Assembly (NCBI RefSeq): GCF_021028975.2
Contig: NC_059441.1
Coordinates: forward strand, 6,217,664 to 6,264,000
Length of the DNA stretch: 46,337 nucleotides
Direction of reading: 5' to 3'
Source of the DNA: Sphaerodactylus townsendi
Taxonomy: Eukaryota
Shown: positions 8,180 through 46,337 of the stretch, in pieces
Layout of the letters: every line of letters begins with the position of its first letter
Numbering within the stretch: the first letter of the stretch is position 1
Notes under the pieces: generated by a model
Seen by the model: only the letters and a program-made list of their open reading frames with translations
What the model was told of the DNA's origin: nothing
Databases searched by the model: none
Program-made: the position numbers and the translations under genes

Positions 8180-11063
8180 TCAATTGGTGAGCGTGATCAG
8201 TGCCTCCACTACGTTTCCCAAGTGCTCTCGTAAGCTGCGCTCTGCTGCTGCCCTGGATATCTCCATCTCATTCATCTATCAGGGAAATGGAAGGAAAACT
8301 GTCATTGAGGCTGCATCTGTCATGTGACGCTTGAAGAGAACTGTTCTCATGCACCACCAGCAAAACAACGACTCACAATTAGCTCCAAGTCTTCTTTCTT
8401 GATGGTAACTTTGGCCAATTCCTTCTCTCTGAAAGCAAAACAAACAAAATCTGTTTAGGGCCCCCAGATAGCATCCCACTCCACGATCAAGCAATGCAGG
8501 CCCTACAGCGATGTTTCACAGCCTCTCGTTTGCATTTGGGCTTGCAGCCCCATGAGCAGAGGCAGAATTCTGGTGCTGCACCAATGGAACTCATAGTAAG
8601 GATTTATGGCCAAAGTATGGTAGAAGGCTTTCACAACTCGAATCAACTGGATGGTGGGTTTTCCAGACTGTGTGGCCGTGGTCTGGTAGTTTTAGCTTCT
8701 TAGGAGCTAAAACTACCAGACCACAGCCGCAAAAACCCACAGCCAATTTATGGCCAGACTCATTTCTTAACATTTGAAACATGTATATCGTGCTTCTACC
8801 AGTTAAACTGGTGAAAACTGCTGCCACTTCATGAAAAATGCAAACGTTGTCTCGAACTTGGCTGTAGCTACAAGGATCTGCTTTGGTGCCAAGTCATGTT
8901 CATAGGCTGTGGCTGGCGCACCTGGCAGCTCTTACCAGGGTGGCTGAGAAAGTTGCCGACATGCCTGCTCAGTGAAAGGAAGAACTCACCGCTCCTGTTT
9001 TGCTTTCTGCTCCCTGGATCTTCGGTCTCCGATCACAGACATAGCCTATGGGGGGAGGAAATTCCAGAATGTGTTAAGAACTCAACAAGGGTCTACCAGA
9101 CAATCCACAGGAGATCTCTTAGAGGAGTCGTGGTCCATTTAGTGTAGCATCCCCTTTCCAGCAGTGGGTGCTCACAGGGAAGCCCTCAGTAGAGCCTGCC
9201 AGTTGCTCCCCAGCATGTCACAGTCAGAGGCCGGGTGCATATAAAACGGTTTGGCTACCACAGCTAACAGCCCTACGTCTACCCAACCCCCTTTTTAAAG
9301 CCCATCTCAACTAGTGGCTGTCACCTTGTTCGTGGCAACAAGCCCCACAAGTTGTGTGAAGGAGTCAGGCATCCATGTGATACACAATGACCTCCAGTTG
9401 CAAATGAAAAGTTATCTCTGTGTCTGCATCACCGTTATGTAAACATCATCACGTCACCCCCACAATTGCTGTTATTAAAACTAAAAAGCGCCAGGTAAAT
9501 TTTTCTACACTGTTTTCAGCATTCCAACACCCTTTTTAAGATATGGCACCCCAAACTGTACACAGTATTCCAAACGAGGCCTCGCCAAGGGGGGAGGGGC
9601 TGTATAAGGACAGTCGTGTACCCATGCGAACAGAAAATGACCCCCCTAAAAATATTATATACACATAATTGTAAGTTGCTTGAGAATGTGAAATGATCCC
9701 TTCTATTTTTTTAACAGCATATCTGGGGCAAAAAGTATACTTGTAGTTGAATAAATACTGCATATTTTCAAGTTTCATTATCAGTTCCTTGCCTGATGGT
9801 TCCCAGCATGGAATTTGCCTTTTTTTTATTCACAGCCGCTCACAGATAACATTTTTGTCAATCTATCCAACCACAATCACAAGGCATTTTTTTTGGTCTG
9901 TGATCACCAATTCAAATCCCACTGGTGTGTACATGAAATTCAGACTCATTGTCCCAATGTGCATCACTCTGCATAGACTTGCCCTGAATTTCATCTTCTA
10001 TTTTGTTGCCCATCCACACAATGACAAGAGTCCTTCAGCAGCTCCTCAAGATGTGTTTCCACTACCCTGAACAACTGAGTGCCAATTGTGAACTTTGCTC
10101 CCTCACTGTGTTCCATGTGCTTTATGGAAAAAACCCTAACCCACACCAGCTCCGACAGGTGTCTTTTGGGGCTCTACAGCTTGCCTCCCTCCACTATGAA
10201 AACTGTCCATTTATCTCCACCTTCTACCCCCTCTTCTATACTCAGGTACCCATTCAGGAAAGAACAAATGATCTTATCTGTGTCAAAACCTTTGGTTAGG
10301 AACCCGGCCAAACACTTTCGGAAGTCCGGGCATTCGGTGTCTCTTGGTTGCCGGCGGCACTGGAAGCACCCCAAGCAGCTGGCAGAGCAGGACTCTCCCC
10401 CCCGCCCCCCACGCCGCACAGAGGCCCAGCAGCGGCAGAGTCGCTCGTCCGGCCACCGGTCTGTCGCAATCAGCGCCTTCAGGCGGAACGGATGCGCAGC
10501 CCACGGGCGGCGGCTGCGCAGGTGCACCGGGGACGCTGCGCCGCTCTCCAGCCTTCCAGCCCTGAAGACTGGAGCGGGGCCGCCCGGCGCAGCCTCAGCA
10601 GAAGACGGACCCCTCCCGCGGGCGGGGGGGGGGGAGGGCTCCGGCTGGGCCTGGCCGGGGGGAGGGGCTGAAGAAGTGGCTGCAGCTCGGACAGGCGCCC
10701 CGCCCCCGCCGCCCCGGCCGAGACTGAAGGCTTCTGACGGGCATGAGCTGGGGGGGCGGCGGCTTCTCCCCCTCCCCTCCCCTCCCCTCCCCCCGCCGCG
10801 GCCAGAGCGGAAGCGCCCCTCCACCCCCACCCCCCGGCCGGCCGGCCGGCCCGGTCCCCTCGGGGGCGCATGCGCGCGCGCACCGTCTCCAGGTTGGAGC
10901 TCTGAATCTCCTTCTCCTCCGCGTAGTCGGTGACGCGCTCCAGGTCGGCCGCGCCGCTGTCGTGCTTCCGCGGCTTCTCGGCCGGGCGGCCCCCATCGCC
11001 GCCGCTCGCCGACCCGTTGGGCTCCGCCTCCAGCTCCAGCTCCACATCGCCCTCCGCCGCCAT
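8180..11063 (-). CDS. HYPK: Huntingtin-interacting protein K (NatA-associated regulator/chaperone), 127 aa, 4 coding exons
   Basis: Minus-strand exons 11063-10884, 9045-8990, 8428-8377, 8275-8180; GT-AG, phases consistent. Translation MAAEGDVELELE...KPRKHDSGAADLERVTDYAEEKEIQSSNLET|AMSVIGDRRSREQKAKQER|EKELAKVTIKKEDLELI|MNEMEISRAAAERSLREHLGNVVEALITLTN*. Minus-strand AATAAA at 7948-7953. Confidence 0.97.
8652..8742. mobile_element. Penelope-like inverted-repeat (hairpin) fragment in HYPK intron 2
   Basis: gtggtctggtagttttagct is followed closely by its reverse complement agctaaaactaccagaccac; the arms match the element at 32080-32172. Confidence 0.6.
9535..10330 (-). mobile_element. Old, degraded CR1/L3-like LINE fragment in HYPK intron 1
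   Basis: Reverse complement resembles the CR1 RT 3' region (ccaaactgtacacagtattccaaa; cccagcatggaatttgcc; gaatttcatc); no intact ORF. Confidence 0.55.
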
Positions 11064-11480
11064 CGCTCGCTCCGCCGGCCGCCGCTTCCGTCGCCCGCGG
11101 TGACGGACTTCCGGAAGCGCGCCTTGGACGAGGGGCTGGCCCAGGGCTCTGCAAGCCGCGGCTCGCCGGATGTTCACGGACTACAACTCCCATCAGCCCC
11201 TGCCAGCATGGCCCATTGACCGTGCTGGCAGGGGCTGATGGGAATTGTAGTCCATGAACACCTTCTGGAGAGCCGCAGGTTGCAGAGGCGCAGCAGGCCC
11301 GAAGGCGGCCGGGCTTCCTTTTCCCTGCTGGGGCTGCCGGGCGGTCGTCTGTGTGGCGCAGGGCCGAGGAGGAGAGGCTCGCGGCGACGACACGGAGCCC
11401 TGCAGGGCAGGCCGGGCCGTCCTGCTCCGCTGGTCCAATGGGATGCTCCAGCGGCGGGCAGATGTGCTGCTCTGAGAATA
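10330..11480 (-). promoter_or_regulatory. CpG island / promoter of HYPK
   Basis: CpG-dense; palindromic ETS site ACTTCCGGAAG at about 11108-11118; NRF1-type GCGCATGCGC at about 10866; ACTACAnnTCCCA motifs at 11180-11192 and 11239-11251. Confidence 0.7.
11142..11292. mobile_element. Palindromic hAT-type MITE (cagg..tctgcaa TIR subfamily) in the HYPK proximal promoter
   Basis: Same self-complementary core (ggactacaa.tcccatcagcccctgccagcatgg..) as the other copies; about 80 bp upstream of the HYPK ATG. Confidence 0.85.
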
Positions 11481-22758: not shown

Positions 22759-24333
22759 CCTCGGGCTGGAGGCCATTGTCCGTGCCACGCTCTGCCGTGG
22801 GCTGACCCCCTGACCGGATTGCCTGAGGCAGACATCGAGAGAGGTGCCGGGGAGAGACCGATCCCCAAAGGGTTTCTACCGGATGGGCTTGGCAGCGCCA
22901 CCAGTGTCTGCCAGGGACACGGATGTTGCCCCCCACGGGGCTCCTGGTCACAGCGAGAGGAGCCAGCAAAACGTGCCGGGATGGTGAGGAGGGACGTGGC
23001 TGGGGTGGGGAGTGACTCCGGAGCTGCTGGAGCAAGGAAAGTCGGACTGATGCGGCGCCTGGAGCGAGGGCAAGGGCTGCGTGCAGAGCCACCAGAGCAG
23101 GAGCACTGTCTTCCACCACGAGCCGGCCTCTTCAGTGAGGGGGACGGGGCCCGGTTGAGGGACGGCCGTCTTCTTCCACCCAGGAGCACTTGTGCTGGTG
23201 GAAGGCCCATCCTGCCTCGCGGAGAAGCAGAGTGCAGAACCGGACCCCTGATCTGCAGGAGAGGGAGGCCGGAGGCTGCCTGGGACGGGGTGTGCTGGTC
23301 ACGCCAATAAAGGCTTGCTCTGTTCTCCTGCTCCGGAATGTCTCCTCTTCCATCTTTCCCCTGGTGCCTGGAGCGGAGGGGGTGGCTTCCCAGCATCCAT
23401 GGGTCCACGGGTCCACTCGCCTCGTCATCCTGCCCCACAGCAGAGTCTATTATTTGGGGCTCCCCAGGGTTTTATGGTCTGGCGGGCAGGGTCCTTCCGA
23501 CAATCCAAGCAAAGGGAGACAGGGAAAACCTGAGGCTAGTCAGAGAGGGCCGGGGCCCCCTTCCCAGCTCTGGCAACCTCTCAGGGCAGCAGGGGGAGGG
23601 GGCAGATAAGCGGGCTCACTTGGCTTCCTGGGGCAGGGAGGGCCTAATCCTATCAGGGCATTAAGTAACACCACAAAGCTCCAGGCCGTCTGCTCCAAGC
23701 CAATTAGCTCCAAGCGGATTCTCTGCTGCTTCTGTTTCAAAGCCAGCCTGCTTCTTCCCATTTCACTGTTCCCGTTTCCCCAAAGAACCCTCGAAACAGA
23801 AGCCGTGAAAAGCATCTGGACATGACGTCTTCACTGGGTTACAGTTTCTGACCAGCTGGATGAGCTTACCAAGGAGGGGGCAGGCGGATGGGTCAGAGCT
23901 GCACTTGTTGCCCTGGCTGGCCACGGGGCACAGGGAGGGAGGGTCTTCCCGCAGTCCCTCCCAAAGCATTGGCAGCAGAGCCCTTCACGGGATTCCCTTC
24001 TGGAGGGGCTGCAGCCCTCTTCCTTGGGAGGAGCGAGTCCCTTGACCGGAACATGGTGGTGGAGGGATAGGAATCATTGGAGAAAAACCAAAAGGCTCAA
24101 AGAGGAGGTGGAGTGCAGCCGGACGTGAGAAGAGAGTTTGTTGTCAGAAAATACTGGAGGAGGAAGAGGAGGAGGAGGAGGAGGGGGAGGAGGGTGGTGA
24201 CGGCCCAGTGGGAAGTATCTGGCTGAGGTTTTGTGATTGGAATCTATAGACCTGCCGTCCTGGGTGAGCAGGAGGATGCTGCCTCCTTGAACAGCCTGGC
24301 GGGATCCAAACCACAGGCCCTGGAGTGCCTAGA

Positions 24334-24479
24334 TGGTGGTGGCGAACCTTTGGCACTCCAGATGTTATGGACTACAATTCCCATCAGCCCCTGCCAGCAT
24401 GGCCAATTGGTCATGCTGGCAGGGGCTGATGGGAATTGTAGTCCATAACATCTGGAGTGCCAAAGGTTCGCCACCATGG
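24334..24479. mobile_element. Complete palindromic hAT MITE
   Basis: Near-identical to 14330-14475; flanked by gcctag on both sides. Confidence 0.92.
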
Positions 24480-26343
24480 GCCTAGGAGACTTCAGTTTCC
24501 CTGACTTGGGTGTCCACAGTCACAAAAGTTCCTGACCTGCGTGGCTGACAGCTTCGTTCACCAAATGGTGGAGGAAGCCACGAGAGGCTCAGCCCTACTT
24601 GGCTCACTATTGACCAGCAGGCAAGAGACTGTCGATGGGGTGAAGGAAGGTGTGGGGGGGGGACCTTAGGGGGAAGTGACCAAGTCCTCCTAGAAATCCT
24701 TTTACGGTGGGGCCCAAGGACATTTGAAGTCACGCTTGTCTGTTAGATTTTAGTCGGGCAGACTGTAATGAACCCCGAGGCACAATGCGAGTCATTGCGT
24801 GGGCAAGACTGCTGGAAGGGGGAGGGGGGCCTCTCCTAAAACAAGAGCTCTCCCAAGCTCAAGGCATCGCTCTTCCAACAAGACAGGGACATGGCATACT
24901 CTGTCTTAGAAAAAGATGTTAGTAGGATCAGCTGAGGTGCAGCAGTTGAGAAAATTGTATGCTACTCCATTCAAATATTGTCCCAAACAAAGATGAGAAT
25001 TGTCATACATTTTTACACACTTGCTTTGTCAAAACCAATATTTTGTGCATTGTTGGTACTTTGATACAAGAGCATTTATAAACTGAATGCCAAAATGTAT
25101 TTTCTAGTTTCAAACGGACAGGGGAAGTAGGCCTAGGTAGGCACTGGGACCCAGCTGGAGCAGTCCACAACAAGGGGTCTGAATGCCGTTTCCCTGACCA
25201 AACACTACCCTGCTTCTGCTGCTCATTAAGGACTTTCTAGCAAGGGGGAGGTGTTCACAAGCTGGATCTGAGGGAAGCCTATTACGGGGGTCTGGATCCA
25301 GGATGGGGATGAGTGTGTGGATGGGGTATTGGTTTAACACAAGAGACTCCGTAGGAGCATATACAGTTAATAGGGTCAGTATTTACCAAATGGCGGAACA
25401 GTGCTCTGCGTGTTTGTGATGAGGGATTCCATGTATATCTCCACCAAGAATCTACGTTGTGCTTAACCCAGTCACAAGTTGGGTCATGGGTATTTGGGAC
25501 CTTTTAAAATTGTACGTGTCACCAATCTGTGGGCAGCTCAGGGATCATGGCGCAGTGGCTTGAGGTGTGTGTTCACTTAGAAAAGAATCCTACTCACAGT
25601 CTTTTACTATGCATTTTATTCATTGTATAGTCCACCTTTCTCAGTGAGACTCAAAAGAGATTTCACAGCGTAAATCAATCACTCAATCAGATGAGATATC
25701 TAATAAACAATGTGATAACACTAGGATCATAGCGATTTGAAACAGCAAAAATTATACAATATTTCAAATGCAAAAAATGCTATTACAAAGGTAGATACAG
25801 TAAGATAAAACATAACAGATAATGCATAACATACAGTGATATAATCCACAATTCTGTTGCTTTTATCAAAGCGCCTTCCTGAATCATTCCATGATCATGC
25901 AGCTCGACTGTCTTCATAAAATGCCCTCTTGGGCCACTCTGTTTTACAGAGTGAGCAGAATGACACAAGTGAGGAGCCCTTCGGACATGCTCAGAATGGT
26001 CACAGAAATTGCGTGCTCCCCCTGCCTGTGAGATGATGACCCTCACTTGTTTGCTGGGGGTGGAGAGAGACCTCAGCTTAACCCATCAGCGTCAGGAGAA
26101 AAAGCCCCCCCCCCCCAGCACAGAAGAAAACAGCTGCTGGGCTTGCCGCTCATTCTCAGGGGTCAAAAGGGCAACGGGGGGACCGCACGGGCTGCCACTT
26201 GAACGATGAGGGCTGCAAAGGGACACGCCCAATGCCTTTGCTCAGTGGTGGCCACAGGCACTCCGGACCGTCCAGGGGTGCTTTGCCGCTGCGTGTATCT
26301 GCAGGCATGACGAGCAGAGGCCGCCTTTGGAGTCCTCTTCCTT

Positions 26344-28971
26344 TCAGGGGAAACTCAGATGAGGAGCAACAGACAGGCTCAGCTGTGGCTGCCTCAAAGC
26401 AGAGAGGCCAGAAACTGCTGCCGCCTTCCCAGCAGCTGCGCAGGCAACTCCCTCATCTGGAACACAAGCGGCGGCCACAGGATTTTGGGGCGACAGGGAA
26501 GTGCGCGCCTGGTCTGGGCCTGCTGGCGAGTGGCTGAGGGGTCCTCCTGGCACGTCCCCTCCGGGCTCTGGCTGGCCTCTCTGCCGCCTGGCCATCCGGG
26601 AGAGCTCTGCATGAATGGCCTAAGAGAGAGGATGGGGCCCTGCTGGTCAAGTCCTTCTCCAGGCCCTTCCCCCGACCTCTTGACAGCTCTATCCATGGGG
26701 GGGGGGGTTGATTCCCCTGGCTGTTCCCCTTTTCTCTTGGAGGGGGCCAGGTCGATTTGCCTGAGCCCGGCTGGCTGACTGGCCCAGGTGAGCAACTAGG
26801 GTTGGGTGAGGCTGCAATGCTGGTTCCGCCCTGGCCCTGTCCAAGGGCCGTGCTGCTCACCTTTGCGGTGGGTTCCAGCTGGAGGGCTCTCTTCAGCAGC
26901 TTGGCCGCGGCCTGGTCCTGGCCCAGCTCGGCCAGTAGCTGAAGGAGGGAAGGAGGGAGCGCGTGAGTGGGGGGTTGGCGGGCGGTCCGGCTCTTTTCAC
27001 GATGGACCCTCCAACCTCCCTCCCTCCCGCTCGCTGCCCTAGTCACAGAGCAGGAGGAGGAGGAGGCGGCAGCACTGGTGTATCAATAGAAAATTGAGTC
27101 CGGGGCAAGAACCACCCCCCACAATGGGCGGCCACCCTGCCCCGCCCCCTCACATCCCCCTCTTTCATCCTCCCAGCCCTCCTCTGCATGCACGCCCCCC
27201 CTCCAGCCAACTAGTGCCCTGCCCCCTTCTTATTCTACGGGCCCAGCCCATCTCCATGCCGGCCCGCTTCTGCCCAGCCCCCACCCCTGGCTTCCTCCTC
27301 AGGCCTGCTGGCTTGCCCAGGGCCACGGGGCTCTTGCAGTTCACGCCTGAGCCGCCCATTGAGGGACCGCTCAGTGCCGAGCAATGTGCCATGGCCGCGT
27401 GCCCCCTGCCCTTGCGCACTACCTCCACTCATGGATAGCCCTCTGGCTGGGGGGAGGTTGCTGGGGAGCTGGGGAGGGGCAGCTGGGCGAGTCTGAGGTG
27501 GGGGTCAACCCCAGACTCCAATACGGCGGAGGGGTGGGGGGTGATTGCCCACCCCCCACATGACTAAACGGCTGCTGCCCAGGGACGTTTGGCCCCATAT
27601 GTCCCCCTGGGCAGTACGCCCCTGGGAGGAGGCGCGCCTACCTTGCCTTTCCAGTAGAGGGCCTGGGCGTCATCGGGTTCTAGGCGCTCCGCCTCATGGC
27701 AGAAGTCCAGCGCTGCCTCCCGCCGGCCCAGCTTCAGCTGTGCGGCGGCGCAGCTGGTGAGGCACTTGAGCCGCAGCTGCCGCAGCTCGACCTCCTGCTC
27801 CTCAACCTCCTGGTCCTGGGGGCCGTCTGTGGGGAAGAAGCTGACCGCTCAGTGCCCCCCGCCCCACCCGGCCTTGGGCGCCTGCTTCCCGGCCCTCACC
27901 CTGTGTCCAAGGTCTCTTACCGGCGGCAGCAGGCGAGGAGGGCAGGAGGCGCAGTGCCCGCTGGTAGGAGCGCAGGGCCAGCTGGTAATCCTGGCGCTCG
28001 AAGTGGAAGCGGCCCTGCTCTCGTGCCCGGTCGGCCAGGCCCAGACGTTGCGGGGCCGCCAGGAGCGCCAGATCAGGACTCTCCCGCACCTGCAGCAGCG
28101 TCACCTGGTAGAGCAGCGGGGCTTCCGCAGGTATGTCGGGCTGTCTGCGGGGTTGCGGAGAAGAAAGGCTGCCTGGGTGGCCCCCTCGGTGGCCGGTGAG
28201 CCAGGCCTCATCGCCCGCCCGGGTTCCAACTTTGGCCCTCAGAGCAGCAACGCTTGGCCGGACCTACCTGCCCAGGCGGCCGTAGGCATAGGCTGGCCTG
28301 GTGAGGATCAGGGCCACTTCTCCCGGCCGCATGGACAGAACTGCCAGATCCAAGGCCTAGGAGGGGCAGAAACAGGCCGGGCCCATCAATGCCCAAGTGG
28401 GCGCCACCAGCGCAGGGGGAGGGCGAGCCCCGGCAGCCACGAGGGGAGCCTCTGGCTGCAGCTGGGGGGGGGGGATGTGGCAAAGAGCCACCGGGGCCCT
28501 CCTTGGCACCGCCGCCAACGCAGCCAGCCAGCTGAGGGGCCCGGCTCAGCAGAGGACCCCCCCCCCATTCTAAAGGCCAAGGCAAGATCCAGACCCACCC
28601 CCACCGCCGCCAAACACATCTGACCTGAACGGCCTCCCCCTGGCCCAGAACGAAGGTCAGCCGGGGGTCCTTCTCCACCAGGCTCTGGTCCTGCAGGGCT
28701 CCCAGGAGCTTGACCGTGACCTCCTGGCCCGGCTGTGGCCCACGGGCCTGGCCCTGGCCGCCTCTGACCCGCAGCTTCCTCACACTCTTCTCTTCTGAAG
28801 GGCCAAGGAAGAGGGGGGGCTGCTCTCCTGCTGATCCCCCCTCCCCCCACGGTCTGGCCCTCTTTCCAGAGAGGACCGGCCAGGCTGAGACAAGGGTCCG
28901 CTGGGTTGGGCAGGTGCGTTTGAGCTTGTGCCCGTCCTGGCCACAGGGAGCTGTTTTGTGCAACCAACCAG

Positions 28972-29003
<32 letters not shown>

Positions 29004-30164
29004 TTGCGCGGGGGGGGAGCTTTCCCAGGAGAGGGGGCCTCCCATACTTCCCTCCTCTGAGCCAGAATGAAAACCTCCACTTTCCGTGAGCCCTTTTCTC
29101 ACCTTTTCTTCCAAATCCAAATCCAAAAACCTTTATTAGGCATAAAACCAGTGCCAAGAATTTCAAATACAATTTCTTCCCCCACCAGAGTGGCAGAGCA
29201 GGAGCAGCAGAGGGGTCATGCGGCTCTTCCCCAGGGATGCCCCCCTGCCCCCTCGCCGGCTGGCTGGGACCCCACCCAAAATAGCCCTGGAAGCGAGGCC
29301 CTTTTCTCAGGGAGAGTTTCCCACCAGCCTCTTTCCTCCCCGAGCACTTCTCCGTCATCCCCCACCCACCCACCCGTCTGTCCCCTGGCTCAACGTCCTG
29401 GGGGCACCGGATCCTTCACCAACAGCAGCTGCTTCTGACACCAGCCAGCCCAGCTGCTGCCCTGTGGCTGAGGGCAACCCCCACCGGTGACCCTCCGCGG
29501 CCAAGGGGCTCAGAGCAGCCGGGGGGGAGTCGAGCGATGCCCAGAAGGGGGTGGGGAAGCTACTGATAGGTGCAAAGGCTGCCGAAGCAACACTCCACAC
29601 GGAAAAGCTGTGTTGGGAAAGACTGACGCGCACCCCCCCCCACCACGCACACACGGGTGCCACAGATTTGCCTGGGCTACATCCAGGCCAGATACAAGCC
29701 GTCCAGCTGCTATCTCTCCGACTCATTGCTGGGCTTGCTAGAGGACGCCAGGCTGCCCAGATGATCGAGCAGCAGCCAGCCAGCCTAGCATCAGTGGGGC
29801 ACTGGGCCTGCCTCCCACCCCCCCCCCACCCCCGCTGCTGAGAAGCGTCCAGCCACACTGTCTGGCTTTCTGACACTCTCCCCCTCCCCAACAACTCACC
29901 GAGCAAGTCCTCCCAGCCGTCAGCAGCAAAGAGCCCCTCAAAGTTGCCTTCCAAAGTTGCCCCCAGCAAGTGCTCCACAGACTGGTGGAAGGCCTTCTCT
30001 TCTTGCTGGGGTGGGGGCTCTTGAATAGTCACAGGCGGCAGCAGGAACTGGACTCTGCGCCTCAGGCGTGGGCCACGGCATCCCTCCTCCTCCTCCTCAG
30101 CTACCTCTGGCAACTGGGGCCCAAGGCTGGCCCTTGTCATTTCTCCTTCCTGAACCCAGGACAT
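26344..30164 (-). CDS. FKBP8/FKBP38-like immunophilin paralogue (FKBP domain + 3 TPR), about 428 aa from the ATG at 30164; true N-terminus uncertain; possibly the orthologue of fish fkbp16
   Basis: Minus-strand exons 30164-29900, 28794-28625, 28356-28268, 28144-27921, 27826-27642, 26938-26861, 26619-26344; GT-AG, phases consistent, no internal stops. Sequence GWEDLL..VRKLRVRGG..PQPGQEVTVKL..LTFVLGQGEAVQALDLAVLSMRPGEVA..YAYGRLGRQPDIPAEAPLLYQVTL..PDL..KCLTSCAAAQLKL..ALYWKGKLLAELG..ALQLEPTAKAIHAELSRM aligns collinearly with recalled FKBP8 (EWLDILG..DVIQALDLSV..PYIPPHAAL..KCLNNLAASQLKL..ALKLEPSNKTIHAELSKL). Confidence 0.88.
28973..29001. repeat. (TG)n microsatellite
   Basis: Read directly from the sequence. 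Confidence 0.95.
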
Positions 30165-30997: not shown

Positions 30998-31103
30998 CTC
31001 ACAGGGTGTTTGTTGTGAGGGGGGAAGGGCAAGGAGATTGTAAGCCCCTTTGAGTCTCCTGCAGGAGAGAAAGGGGGAATATAAATCCAAACTCTTCTTC
31101 TTC
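30998..31103 (+). mobile_element. 5'-truncated SINE/LINE tail with (TTC)n end
   Basis: Nearly identical to 41197-41303. Confidence 0.85.
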
Positions 31104-32079
31104 CTCTTCCATCTTCTCTTCTGAACTGTCGCCTTTTTCTTCTTCCTCGTCCAAGTTTTGTTTCTCTCCAAGCAGCTTCCCTCCTTCCAAGGATATCCGC
31201 CGGGTGGGCTCTGAACCCCACTGGCCTTCTGGGGGCTGTGGCACAAGCCGCATAGGGCATGATGTCCAGAGGCATCTGCCGTGAAGGGCGCTGCGCCCTT
31301 TGCACTCTGCTCATGCCCACCAGAACTAGGCAACTGTCAGGTGAAGCTAGCCGAGTAAGACCAGGCAGTAGAGGCTCTTGTTATTAGAACTGCGACATCA
31401 GGGACTCCTGAGGACCCCGGCTGAGGCTTCGTGGGCTTCTTGGGGCAGTGAAGTCCGGCTTCCTGTCCAGGGTGTCCTCGATAGCGCCCGTGACATCTGC
31501 AGGTAGCAAGTCAGCAAGCCTGCTGTGGGAGCATCTTCGGTTCAAAAGCTGGGCTTTCCAGGTGGTCTAATTCCTTGGCTGCATCGGGAAATTGCCCATT
31601 GGACACAGGTTGGGTGAGCTGTTCAGTGTTCCAGAAGGGGCCCTGACTTCTCTGCTGAAGTGGTGCCGGGGGGCGGGGGGGAATCCCTGGAGCTCTCCAG
31701 AGGTTCACCCTTGTTCTCCTCGGGCAACTTGAGGGCAGTTATAACTTTTGCTAATAGGGATTGGAAATCCTCCCCATCGAAAAGTCTCCCTTCGGCAGAG
31801 AGTCCTCACTAAGCCCCTCTCCCTGTCTGAGGAAGGAAACTAGACTGGCTAACAACAGACCAACAGGGGGTTAAATAGCAGCAGCCGACTTCCTGAGCCA
31901 CCAAGATGCCCTCCCGCCCTTCAGAGGAAGAACAGGAAACTGCTGTTTTTTTGTATTGTCCTTTTCTTTTCCATCTTTTATCCTTTTTCTTTCATCCCTC
32001 CTGAACCACCTTCTCCTTAAGTCTTTCCGCCCCAGCATACTGTGTCCAGACTTCTGTTATAACAGACTTCCCTCTGTGA

Positions 32080-32594: not shown

Positions 32595-40321
<7,727 letters not shown>

Positions 40322-40486
40322 CGGGCCCCGGGCGGGCAAGGCAAGGCAGGGCGGGCGGGCGGGCGGAGGGGTCGCGGCGGCGGCGGAGCGGGAGCCGGAG
40401 GGCGTCTGCGGGTCTCGCTCTCCCTCACGCTCGCCTCAGCGGGAAGCTAAAGGGGAGACGGAAGTCCCGCCCCTCTGCTCGAACAG

Positions 40487-41003: not shown

Positions 41004-41303
41004 GGAGCAGCAGTGGCGTAGGAGGTTAAGAGCTCGTGTCTCTAATCTGGAGGAACCGGGCTTGATTCCCGGCTCTGCCGCCTGAGCTGTGGAGGCTTGT
41101 CTGGGGAATTCAGATTAGCCTGGGCACTCCCACACACGCCAGCTGGGTGCCCTGGGGCTAGTCACAGCTTCTCGGAGCTCTCTCAGCCCCACCTACCTCA
41201 CAGGGTGTTTGTTGTGAGGGGAGAAGGGCAAGGAGATTGTCAGCCCCTTTGAGTCTCCTGCAGGAGAGAAAGGGGGGATATAAATCCAAACTCTTCTTCT
41301 TCT
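41004..41303 (+). mobile_element. Full-length tRNA-derived SINE (about 300 bp)
   Basis: Pol III A-box-like tggcgtaggagg, B-box-like ggcttgattccc, MIR/CORE-like cctacctcacagggtgtttgttgtgag segment, (TTC)n tail; several related copies in the window. Confidence 0.85.
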
Positions 41304-41910
41304 TAAAAGCTGGCCAGAGACATGAATGCCTTTGCGCACTCGCACAAGACAGGCGGTGGACACGTCGCTCAGTGTTTGCTGCCTGGGAGGTGGAGAAACC
41401 AGATGAAGGCAGAAAACGCCTCTTGTGGCAACGAACACATATTGGTGCTGTCATGGGAAGGCTGGCGGGCTAAACTTTGGAATACTGAAAAGAGTGAACA
41501 AACCCACAGTGTCGTCACACTTGATATGCTTGAAAATATTGTATAAAGCTCAGAAAGTAATCATCTAATGCTGTAAAGTGTCATCTTCCCAAAATTTCTT
41601 TTTTTTACATTCTCGAACAGACTCCCCCAGTCTTTGTTTCTTTACCCCCAACTTTACCAGCAGCCTCGGTGCTTAGGAGAGGAGAAGTGATGAGCAGCGC
41701 TCTGTAGCAGCAGCAGCCGCCATGTGTTTCGTCTCAGCAGACGGCGCGGCACCGTCTGCTCCTGGGCCAGCAACGCTCCCTTTCCCGTTTCCTGGAGACC
41801 TGGCTTAACACTGACTTCCTGGCCTTGGGCTGACAGAAGGAGAACATTGGCCCGACCTGTGGCAGCAGCCAGAGCACCTGTGCTGAAGACATGTCGCCGA
41901 CACCTCCCGT

Positions 41911-43580: not shown

Positions 43581-43581
43581 A

Positions 43582-43960
43582 GAAGAATTTGGATTTATAC
43601 CCCCTTTTCCCTCCTGCAAGGAGACTCAAAGGGGCTCATCAGCTCCTTTCCCTTCCTCTCCCCACAACAGTCACCTTGTGAGGTAGCTGGGGCTGTGAGA
43701 GTTCTGAGAGAACCTTGACTGGCCCAAGGTCACCCAGCAGGAATGTAGGAGTGGGAAAACATCTGGTTCACCAGATAAGACTCTGTAGCTCATGTGGAGG
43801 AGTGAGGAATCAAACCAGGTTCTCCATAGTCTACTGCCGTGGTGGCGAACCTTTGGCACTCCAGATGTTATGGACTACAATTCCCATCAGTCCATAACAT
43901 CTGGAGTGCCAAAGGTTTGCCACCACTGGTCTACTTGCTCTTAACCACTACACATCACTG
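43582..43960 (-). mobile_element. tRNA-derived SINE interrupted by an internally deleted palindromic MITE (43837-43928)
   Basis: SINE sequence resumes after the MITE (..gctcttaaccactacac); MITE flanked by gtctactg / gtctactt. Confidence 0.85.
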
Positions 43961-45131
43961 GGCAGGGAGCTGTTCCTGTCTGCAGCAGAGCAGAGAACAC
44001 ACAATTATGGGTATAAAATTGCACGTGGAAAGAACAGTAGGGATTTTTTGTGTTTGCAGTGAAAGTAGTTCAGCCTTGGTATCAGCTACCGATGGAGGTG
44101 GGGAGCTCCCCCTCTCTGGCTGTTCACAAGTAGCTGCTGGACAAATAGCAGCTGGTCAGGGTTGTTCTAGGACCAGATTCATCCAGCACTGAGCTGGGAA
44201 GGTTGGACTCTTCCTGTAGAGGACATATGCCGGGCGGCCACCTGGTCATCCATCTGAACATTTATCAGACATTACAGAATCCAGTCCCTTGCAGCCACCG
44301 AGACCGCGTTTGGCAGAAGGGTTTTGGAACATATTTTTGGAGACTGAACAGATCCCACCCATTTTGGGGACACTGCTCGGGGAGGTTCCATCCAAGATGC
44401 CCTCAGTTGCCTCCAGGAGAATGGTCCATTGGTCACTTACGATGAAGGGGCCTTCTCCTTGTGGGCGACGAGGGCATCTTGGCCCTCCCTGATGCTTAGT
44501 CAGTCTCAAATTCTCTACAGTCTACGCACTAGTTAGTCATAACTGTATTGTGTTTCAACTTGAGGTTTAGTTATCATGGGGTTTATGCTAACATTAGCCT
44601 TGTTACTTCCTGTTTGTTGTCTTGTTGGAAAAGTTTTTATACACTGCTTTGTCAGTCATTTTACTGGAGCAGGAGATGGACGCCCAAGCCTTCCACAGGA
44701 AATAGCAAGTTTTAGTTCCTGCCTCCCTGAGAAAGGGTTGGGAAATGATGGCCCGTATAGCTCTTTCCAACTCCACGGCTCTATGTGGTGGGAGGGATGG
44801 GACAGCAAATCATAGAGACTCCAATTTCCAAACTGTCACAAAGCAGGAAGATAGTTTTAATAAAATCACTGAAGGACACAACAGTCCCTCCCCCCTTTAT
44901 AATAACTTCTTATAATTTGCTCCCTTTCCTGGGCAGTGCCCCCCCCCCCCCATACACATTCCAAACTGCTGGCTGAGCTTGCAGCCAGGATGGAGTAGCC
45001 CAAAGGATGGAAAACGACGTGAAAAAGAGGCCTTTGAGTGGAAGCTGTTGGAGGCAGCCTATGTAGAAATAAAAATATGAGGGGTCTGTATTAAAAGCAA
45101 TCCCCGCGCCCACCGGGGTCCCTGGGCAGCC

Positions 45132-46301
45132 TCAGGCCAGCAGGCGCAGGCCGACCATGCCCGAAAAGCCCAACAGCACAGCCAGCACTTTGGGCAGGCG
45201 GTTGGCGGGAGAGCCGAGCTCCTGGGGCAGGATCTCCAGGAAGGTGATGTACATGAAGGTTCCGGCCGCCACGCCTTGCAGCAGGCTCCGAGCAGTGGTG
45301 TTGCCGTCGCCGCCAGAGCTCTGGGTCAGAGCCATGCCCAGGCCGACGCCCAGCGGAGAGGTGAGCACGAAGGCGCCCAGAGCGGCCGCCAGCCACCGGA
45401 GCGGGAGGGGGCTCTGGAGCAGCAGGAGGCCCAGGCTGGCAGCCACGACGCTCTTGTGCAGCAGGACAGCCCCCGCCAGCTGCAGCACTCTGCTCGGCGT
45501 GTCCTGCAGGCCCACGGACAGGCCCTCGAAGACGGAGTGCAGGCACAGCGCCAGCGTCAGCACCAGGGAGCGGAAGCGAGAAGCGCGGCGCCGGGGGGCC
45601 TGGTGGTGGTGGTGCTGCTGCTGCTCCTCAGGGCCGGCCTGCCCGGGGCAGGGGGGCAGCAGCAGCGAGGCTTCGTCTCCGCCGGGCTCGCTGCAGTCCA
45701 AGGCCACGTGTTCGACCACCAGCACCAGCAGGAAGCCCACGGCCAGGACCAGCTCCGGCACCGGGAAGTCCAGCTGCAGCCCGAGAGAAAGCAGGAGAAA
45801 GGGCTTGGCTTCAGAGACCCCTCCCCCCCGCCTGCCTTGACCCTAACCCCAGCCCACTCCCACCCCCCACCCGGCAACACGTCCCTTGCCCAAAGCAAAG
45901 TGTCTACCTGGGAGGTTAGGCAGACCGCAGGCAGCCACCCTCTGGCCAACATAGCCTGCAGGGCGAGTGCAGAACGCCCCGGCTGTGTCGAGGCACTGCT
46001 CCTGCAGCTGGCGGCTCGACGGCCCGTTCGCAGCCGAGAGCAAGACCTCGCTCCCCTCCCAAGACCCGCCTCCCCACTCCAGCAGCCGCCGCGCCACCGG
46101 CGGGCCCTCCTCCTCCGACCGTCCTGGCCGAGGCCTCCCCCCAGCCCCCGCGTGCGCCCCGGCCCGGTACCGAGAGCCTCTGCCGGCGCAGCTCCTCCCG
46201 CAGGTCGCGCAGCGAGTCGGGCACCACGTCCAGCAGGCAAGTGGCCAGGAAGACGCCGCCGGCCGCGCAGCTCGCCAGGCTCCGCCAGCGCTGCGCGGCC
46301 C
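45132..46301 (-). CDS. ZIP1-like zinc transporter (SLC39A subfamily II), last two coding exons; 5' end lies beyond the window
   Basis: Minus-strand exons 46301-46171 (SLASCAAGGVFLATCLLDVVPD) and 45773-45132 (LDFPVPELVLAVGFLLVLVVEH..LALCLHSVFEGLSVGLQ..LLHKSVV..GTFMYITFLEILPQEL..*). The HSVFEG TM4 and HK TM5 metal-site motifs and the exon junction resemble recalled SLC39A1. Orthology to SLC39A1 versus a paralogue is unresolved. Confidence 0.92.
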
Positions 46302-46337
46302 CTGCGCCGGGGGGTGGGGGGAGGAAACGAGGCGGTC

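Follow-up and report, generated by a model that had tools for sequence, protein, structure and literature searches.

A Gecko FKBP16 with an Eroded Hsp90 Clamp and a Conserved, Predicted PP1-Docking Motif

Introduction

The closest described system to the gene considered here is FKBP8 (FKBP38; PDB 5MGX), the best solved match to its product by sequence (E 7.5e-54) and by fold (E 2e-22). FKBP8 has an intact clamp for the Hsp90 MEEVD tail, binds Hsp90, and carries a membrane anchor; the tail is essential for that binding, the Kd for the Hsp90 C-terminal domain is low micromolar (2-8 uM), the single change K307E abolishes binding, and full Hsp90 is bound ~20-fold more tightly than the peptide, which implies extra contacts (PMC5344419). 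AIPL1 K265A is a second mutant precedent for lost MEEVD binding (PMC9313453), and single changes at the last clamp Arg are tolerated by plant Hop and CHIP (PMC2939883). Two further systems enter the discussion below: PP5, a clamp co-chaperone (PMC2939883), and RVxF-type PP1 regulators such as RepoMan and PNUTS (PMC6363451). Passages of PMC8467178 add nothing further on FKBP16, clamp loss, or the motif. In the open-access literature we found nothing on vertebrate FKBP16 or on clamp loss in a gecko, and no link between an FKBP8-type protein and PP1 via RVxF.

The window (the whole 46,337-nucleotide stretch of Sphaerodactylus townsendi DNA that was analyzed) contains a gene that we call FKBP16. 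Its product has the same build of an FKBP domain and three TPRs, and the same N-terminal V-x-F motif, as fkbp16 of fishes and the FKBP8-like proteins of tetrapods, but it keeps one of the five clamp residues where nearly all of these relatives keep five. In contrast to FKBP8, it has neither an intact clamp nor a membrane anchor, and the other squamate and bird models tested lack the anchor too. As in RepoMan and PNUTS, its RVxF-type motif fits the consensus, sits in a likely disordered setting, and is followed by a hydrophobic pair that contacts PP1 in a model; unlike theirs, it is joined to an FKBP-TPR body, and PP1 binding is predicted. Judged from its sequence, gecko FKBP16 works like an FKBP8-type immunophilin but falls outside the clamp-type co-chaperones by their defining pattern, K5 N9 - N6 - K2 R6, against which it reads R, R, S, Q, W (1/5).

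Gene, Fold, and Membrane Anchor

The original prediction concerned positions 27642..28030, which are exons 4 and 5 of a seven-exon, minus-strand gene that starts at 30164 or 30140 and ends at 26344 (Table 1). Each of its six introns is bounded by AG/GT, and the reading frame stays open for 420 or 428 amino acids. The 420-residue model, which starts at 30140 and supplies the residue numbering throughout, is letter for letter the UniRef entry of S. townsendi (P0001); the NCBI model (P0109, 428 aa, ATG 30164) has eight extra N-terminal residues. Marks of a pseudogene are absent: the frame is free of stops and frameshifts, and none of the 12 internal splice ends is broken. Splicing at the predicted ends, with CT..AC, is seen for three of the six introns in contigs of sequencing run X5, and for none in three other runs compared; given the low depth of X5 (3.5-7.7, one contig per joint) and a library kind that is not on record, the joints speak to splicing and not to the level of expression.

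Pfam places FKBP_C at residues 99-184 and matches TPRs as well, giving one FKBP domain and then three TPRs, and only FKBP-TPR clusters were among the ESM Atlas matches. On sequence grounds, the gene is the gecko orthologue of fish fkbp16. Over the core, the protein is 57-67% identical to reptile records, while its identity to full-length fish FKBP16 is 43-48% and that to human FKBP8 only 40%; its fish relatives go by the name FKBP prolyl isomerase 16, and those of amphibians, reptiles, and birds by FKBP8-like; and in a tree of 44 chosen orthologues, built without an FKBP8 outgroup, the protein pairs with that of Gekko kuhli (support 100) inside the squamates (support 99). The true FKBP8 of the same genome is a separate gene on contig C5, where FKBP16 exon 1 has no match, and its clamp is intact (5/5). 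A second functional copy with an intact clamp was ruled out by genome searches with exons 1, 2, 4, and 5, which returned only FKBP16, FKBP8, and one dead fragment, copy counts from such searches being lower bounds.

Table 1. Features of FKBP16 and a neighboring gene (positions in the window)
Feature	Position	Strand	Remarks
Exon 1	29900..30164	-	ATG 30164 or 30140; GT donor after 29900
RVxF-type motif RRVQF and downstream hydrophobic pair (residues 28-41)	30018..30059	-	predicted PP1 docking
Exon 2, first half of FKBP domain	28625..28794	-	AG/GT ends
Exon 3, FKBP domain	28268..28356	-	joint 28355/28624 with CT..AC ends in run X5
Exon 4, end of FKBP domain and TPR1	27921..28144	-	clamp codons R208, R212
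Clamp codon R208, kept	28023-28021	-	exon 4
Clamp codon R212, Asn in orthologues	28011-28009	-	exon 4
Exon 5, TPR2 and start of TPR3	27642..27826	-	joint 26938/27642 in X5
Clamp codon S266	27755-27753	-	exon 5
Clamp codon Q296	27665-27663	-	exon 5
Clamp codon W300	27653-27651	-	exon 5
Exon 6, TPR3 second helix	26861..26938	-	joined at either end in X5
Exon 7, capping helix, then disordered tail without membrane anchor	26344..26619	-	TGA stop
PDIA3-like neighbor	32600-40450	-	thioredoxin domain confirmed (Pfam)

In the AlphaFold model, whose alignment was built from intact-clamp orthologues, pLDDT is mostly >85 over residues 71-340, and helices span 197-342; the three-TPR fold and its capping helix are present, as is the helix after TPR3, a feature that bears on calcium/calmodulin activation of the FKBP8/FKBP38 type, with a TM-score of 0.86 to 5mgx by target length. 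The isomerase pocket is degenerate by alignment, of the FKBP8/FKBP38 type. Against FKBP4, Tyr and Trp align to Leu and Asp to Glu at what we take to be isomerase pocket residues, and an Arg (R167) stands at the H87-equivalent position, as in FKBP8, and is invariant among the FKBP16 orthologues compared.

The membrane anchor is absent, the best 19-residue hydropathy being 1.38 versus 2.08-2.96 in 11 anchored orthologues. Could an anchor exon be hidden downstream? An X5 contig reads unspliced through exon 7 to 26200, and tblastn gave no match to such an exon among the matches listed. The hydrophobic tail is missing in 11/11 squamate and 6/6 bird models and present in 11/11 turtle, crocodilian, amphibian, and fish models tested; these 28 are a selection out of 203, and the tail is likewise lacking in several further turtle and frog models, so gene models vary.

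The Clamp and Its Distribution

Aligned to human FKBP8 chain 5mgx_E in the numbering of PMC5344419, the clamp residues R225, N229, N277, K307, and R311 become R208, R212, S266, Q296, and W300. The first is kept and four of five are changed, exactly as had been claimed from the motifs REQGR (28023-28009), CLTSCAA (27764-27744), and AQALYWKGK (27668-27642), all on the minus strand. Further groove changes had been missed, namely, N265T, N294D, V295A, and T328A, so that exon 5 carries T265, D294, and A295 in addition to three of the clamp codons. Still kept are R208, K262, K303, E325, I331, and much of the Met pocket. Summed across the 18 contact positions, the net basic charge is down to +1 from an earlier +3 or +4. 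Assembly error was ruled out as a source of these changes: a contig from run X4 (another study) covers 27636-28074 with a single difference, which is intronic, and X5 contigs cover 27642-27856 and 27999-28355 with none.

Because four clamp residues and their neighbors are gone, where K307E alone suffices in FKBP8, we consider it very probable, by analogy with that mutant, that gecko FKBP16 does not bind MEEVD. To this extent the predicted Hsp90 independence is well grounded; as a property of an FKBP8 paralogue, however, it does not hold.

The survey of orthologues makes the point. Among 201 other records, five were dropped as truncated, fused, or not FKBP16; in the remaining 196, with isoforms of one species counted separately, the clamp reads RNNKR in 133, RNNRR in 59, RNNTR in 3, and RNNKW in one (Gekko kuhli). 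All five positions are thus kept in 192/196 (K/R allowed), from sharks to birds, which rules out clamp loss as a family trait and makes it a gecko event; the orthologue alignment that the original prediction had proposed dates the loss to the gecko lineage. Gecko sampling consists of two gecko proteins and one related run set, and G. kuhli shares with S. townsendi only W300 and A295 among the groove changes. No other gecko, snake, or mammal record was among the matches listed (107 and 120, with 136 more outside the listing), which, the search being word limited, is weak evidence of absence. The RNNTR records are two galliform birds and one further record (P0178, P0182, and P0183), which also have Gln at the K314 equivalent; the Thr at the K307 equivalent together with this Gln is a possible independent weakening of the clamp.

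Groove versus the Rest of the Protein

Is the damage focused on the groove, or is the whole protein drifting? We took the 18 contact positions from the FKBP8 crystal paper (PMC5344419). At sites at least 90% conserved in non-gecko taxa, 5/8 contact versus 6/74 other sites are changed (Fisher p=7.7e-4, a value uncorrected for the genome-wide look from which the original prediction had picked FKBP16), and each of the non-gecko taxa (n=42) has at most one contact site changed. Against a nine-lizard consensus, the counts are 8/16 contact versus 32/172 other sites (p=0.007); at Asn/Lys sites alone, they are 5/7 versus 1/8 (p=0.035); and among invariant non-contact TPR sites, 0/21 are changed. The GC3 of the gene is 0.83. 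GC pressure alone was ruled out as a sufficient cause, given that ten sampled birds are equally GC shifted (20-28 FYMINK residues versus 26 in the gecko) and yet keep 4-6 Asn in the core versus 0 in the gecko.

The rest of the protein has also changed, at 17/80 other TPR and 15/92 FKBP sites versus 3-16 and 4-13 in nine lizards, and its root-to-tip distance of 0.62 (versus 0.35-0.57) is the longest among 11 squamates. The original prediction had named private substitutions in a gene relaxed throughout as the outcome that would count against it. Half of this is seen: the gene is accelerated, but it does not look neutral, and its damage is concentrated in the groove.

Order and Rate of Loss

A close relative, organism C, differs from S. 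townsendi in exons 3-5 at 17/498 exon versus 15/196 intron bases (p=0.025), with no exon indel; the 17 exon differences are ten replacements and seven silent changes. The exons alone give a dN/dS of 0.52, which does not differ significantly from 1 (p=0.18); with introns pooled, the replacement/neutral ratio is 0.41 (95% CI, 0.17-0.91). Within this wide interval, the comparison suggests a fast-evolving gene that is still under residual purifying selection. In exon 7, 9/10 changed codons listed for organism C are replacements.

In the groove, organism C shares R212, T265, D294, A295, Q296, and W300 (no difference is listed there) but keeps N266 and has Q at 208 instead of Arg, so each lineage has lost a different remaining clamp residue; contact codons differ at 2/13 versus 7/153 other codons (p=0.15; small numbers). 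C6 carries, at about 98975500-98975950, a dead and incomplete duplicate that covers exons 4-5 and pieces of intron (76-83% identical, with deletions); it has Q296 and W300 but also N294 and H212, the latter of which may be either an intermediate or later decay. With two differing contact codons in organism C (Q208 and N266) and H212/N294 in the duplicate, no new groove signature has been fixed, and the suggestion that the groove was repurposed for another ligand finds no support here.

Single-site comparison with relatives, rather than reconstructed ancestors, suggests an order for these changes. R300W and V295A, common to G. kuhli, would have come first; K296Q and the change at 212, a position also altered in the dead duplicate, would have followed; N294D and N265T would come third; and the last steps would be N266S in the S. 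townsendi lineage and R208Q in that of organism C. We infer that, along the gecko lineage, the protein was freed from selection on Hsp90 binding and that GC-biased substitution probably hastened the loss of Asn and Lys codons once these were freed. Layered, still-shifting changes fit a site freed from selection, whereas repurposing should show a burst and then stasis; on these sequences, a release of constraint is the better fit, ahead of a groove reshaped to take a new ligand.

An N-Terminal RVxF Motif and PP1

Exon 1 encodes a disordered N-terminus, the RVxF motif, and a conserved helix. The N-terminus is otherwise variable, and its constant part is a basic-V-x-F motif, then L-P and a hydrophobic pair. 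RRVQF, at residues 28-32, is the only [KR][KR][VI]x[FW] match in the protein and is likely disordered (pLDDT 45-60). V30 and F32 are present in 41/43 other taxa, from sharks to birds, the two exceptions having truncated or different N-termini; the loose form of the motif occurs in 42/44 taxa and the strict two-basic form in 15/44, with chances in shuffled sequences of 4% and 0.2%, respectively. The stretch is intact in both geckos, S. townsendi and G. kuhli. Position 4 of the consensus we read as an excluded set. RRVQF fits the PP1-binding RVxF consensus (PMC6363451).

Residues 18-72 modeled with the PP1 catalytic domain scored 0.89 versus 0.17 for the best control. The mark applied was reached by 51/78 solved versus 2/108 mismatched microbial pairs and, in a eukaryotic calibration, by 71/105 solved versus 2/126 unrelated pairs, a calibration that does not extend to peptides and disordered chains. 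At least 64% of contacts recur between runs, and the partner pLDDT is 46 or higher. Residues 1-300 of record P0343 stood in for PP1; this chain is identical to the PP1 of this genome over the 79 residues compared. In the model, residues 28-34, 36-39, and 41 contact PP1, and V30 and F32 touch PP1 residues 169, 242-243, 261, and 288-292, which we take to be the RVxF pocket. Similar RVxF-PP1 complexes have already been solved, so the model's pass shows likeness and not binding; with this in mind, we regard docking of PP1 by FKBP16 via the RVxF motif as probable.

Two other features lie nearby. Fish and amphibian orthologues have a conserved basic-x-P-S-F/V-G-K stretch just upstream of the motif, which, from its sequence, could be a phosphorylation switch for PP1 docking; most amniotes lack its Ser. 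A conserved helical segment (residues about 46-76; 29960-30015 and 29900-29945), with F51, F67, L70, F71, and W76 and a modeled pLDDT of about 80, separates the motif from the FKBP domain.

A Model and Its Alternatives

Taken together, we favor, at slightly better than even odds (about 0.55), a model in which the FKBP16 of most vertebrates likely connects PP1 with Hsp90, while the gecko form likely retains its PP1 arm together with a groove that is folded but no longer used. In other vertebrates, FKBP16 would link PP1, at its N-terminus, to Hsp90, at its TPRs, and in fishes, amphibians, turtles, and crocodilians this link would sit at the membrane. In S. townsendi, the PP1 arm and the fold would remain and the Hsp90 arm would be gone, leaving a soluble adaptor. 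PP5 offers an analogy: an intact FKBP16 would likewise bring a Ser/Thr phosphatase to Hsp90 via a clamp-type TPR, but PP5 carries its own catalytic domain, whereas FKBP16 would recruit PP1 in trans. This PP5-like link to Hsp90 is exactly what the gecko form would have lost. More speculatively, and with somewhat less than even confidence, FKBP16 could be an unrecognized PP1-targeting subunit of vertebrates, a two-piece counterpart of PP5 that delivers PP1 to the clients of Hsp90, with squamates having lost the anchor and geckos now dismantling the clamp one residue at a time, the PP1 site being kept, toward an Hsp90-free PP1 adaptor.

Might FKBP16 instead be dispensable in geckos and on its way to becoming a pseudogene, with the GC-exposed Asn/Lys clamp codons the first to show it? 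Such decay of the whole gene would account for the longest root-to-tip distance among the squamates, for non-groove changes that match or exceed the lizard maximum, for the high GC3, for an exon-only dN/dS not significantly <1, and for exon 7 tail changes that are nearly all replacements among the codons listed; the lack of other gecko, snake, or mammal records among the matches listed would agree, weakly. Yet the frame and its splice ends are intact although the erosion predates the split from Gekko, and the dead duplicate meanwhile fell to its present identity and acquired deletions. Exons differ less than introns, contact enrichment persists within Asn/Lys sites, the invariant non-contact TPR sites are untouched, and the RVxF stretch survives in both geckos. 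We therefore consider wholesale decay unlikely. A groove rebuilt around R212, Q296, W300, T265, and D294 as a site for a different peptide ligand would explain why the changes are concentrated there, why six of them (R212, T265, D294, A295, Q296, and W300) are common to organism C, why N212R required two base changes, and why the fold is kept. Against this, the contact codons of close relatives continue to diverge at roughly the rate expected in the absence of selection (2/13; small numbers), the changes built up in layers and not in one burst, there is no candidate ligand, and an intron divergence of 7% is too recent for shared residues to reveal constraint; we regard such repurposing as quite improbable. 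That Hsp90 binding persists, weaker or through contacts outside the clamp, so that the protein is still a co-chaperone, seems to us more doubtful still. R208, K262, K303, and much of the Met pocket could allow weak binding, E325 and I331 are also kept, FKBP8 holds full Hsp90 far more tightly than the peptide (PMC5344419), and some co-chaperones tolerate one radical clamp change (PMC2939883); but the tail is essential and K307E abolished binding in FKBP8 (PMC5344419), every Asn holding the terminal carboxylate is gone, and the basic charge of the contact positions is much reduced.

A five-residue site kept from sharks to birds has been caught decaying in one lineage, with intermediates in living relatives. 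These intermediates amount to a ready-made allelic series from which the contribution of each clamp residue to Hsp90 binding, and the role of an immunophilin that lacks Hsp90, could be worked out, and the conserved RVxF motif gives FKBP16 a testable function. The reach of the finding is limited, as no mammalian record was among the matches listed and the clamp loss may be a simple release of constraint in a few geckos.

Neighborhood and Minor Observations

FKBP16 lies between a thioredoxin-domain gene, presumably PDIA3, and a Serinc gene (Pfam). Judging by their translations, 45081-46337 (minus strand) looks like a ZIP-type zinc transporter and 10479-11180 (minus strand) like HYPK. Three bird FKBP16 gene models are named for or carry SERF2, a neighbor of this gene cluster in humans. 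SERF2 was not found beside FKBP16 (22900-26300 in the window), the two genome matches of its family being on C9 and C7, and it may have been lost or moved in S. townsendi.

In run X4, alleles common to organism C at 80% likeness are gone at 90% over 27636-28362 and so likely come from paralogous fragments. Three further organism-C-like alleles, at 28706, 28717, and 29949 in exons 1-2, stand at about half depth in X4; a second copy of exons 1-2 that would explain them was not found in this assembly. An acidic-looking open frame upstream of FKBP16 (30999-31310 and 41158-41469), with no Pfam match, is repeat derived and matches the 43581-43738 region and repeats on C6. High-copy repeats also lie in introns 5 (27552-27625) and 1 (29077-29213), and organism C contigs either bypass the first stretch of intron 5 or have other sequence in its place.
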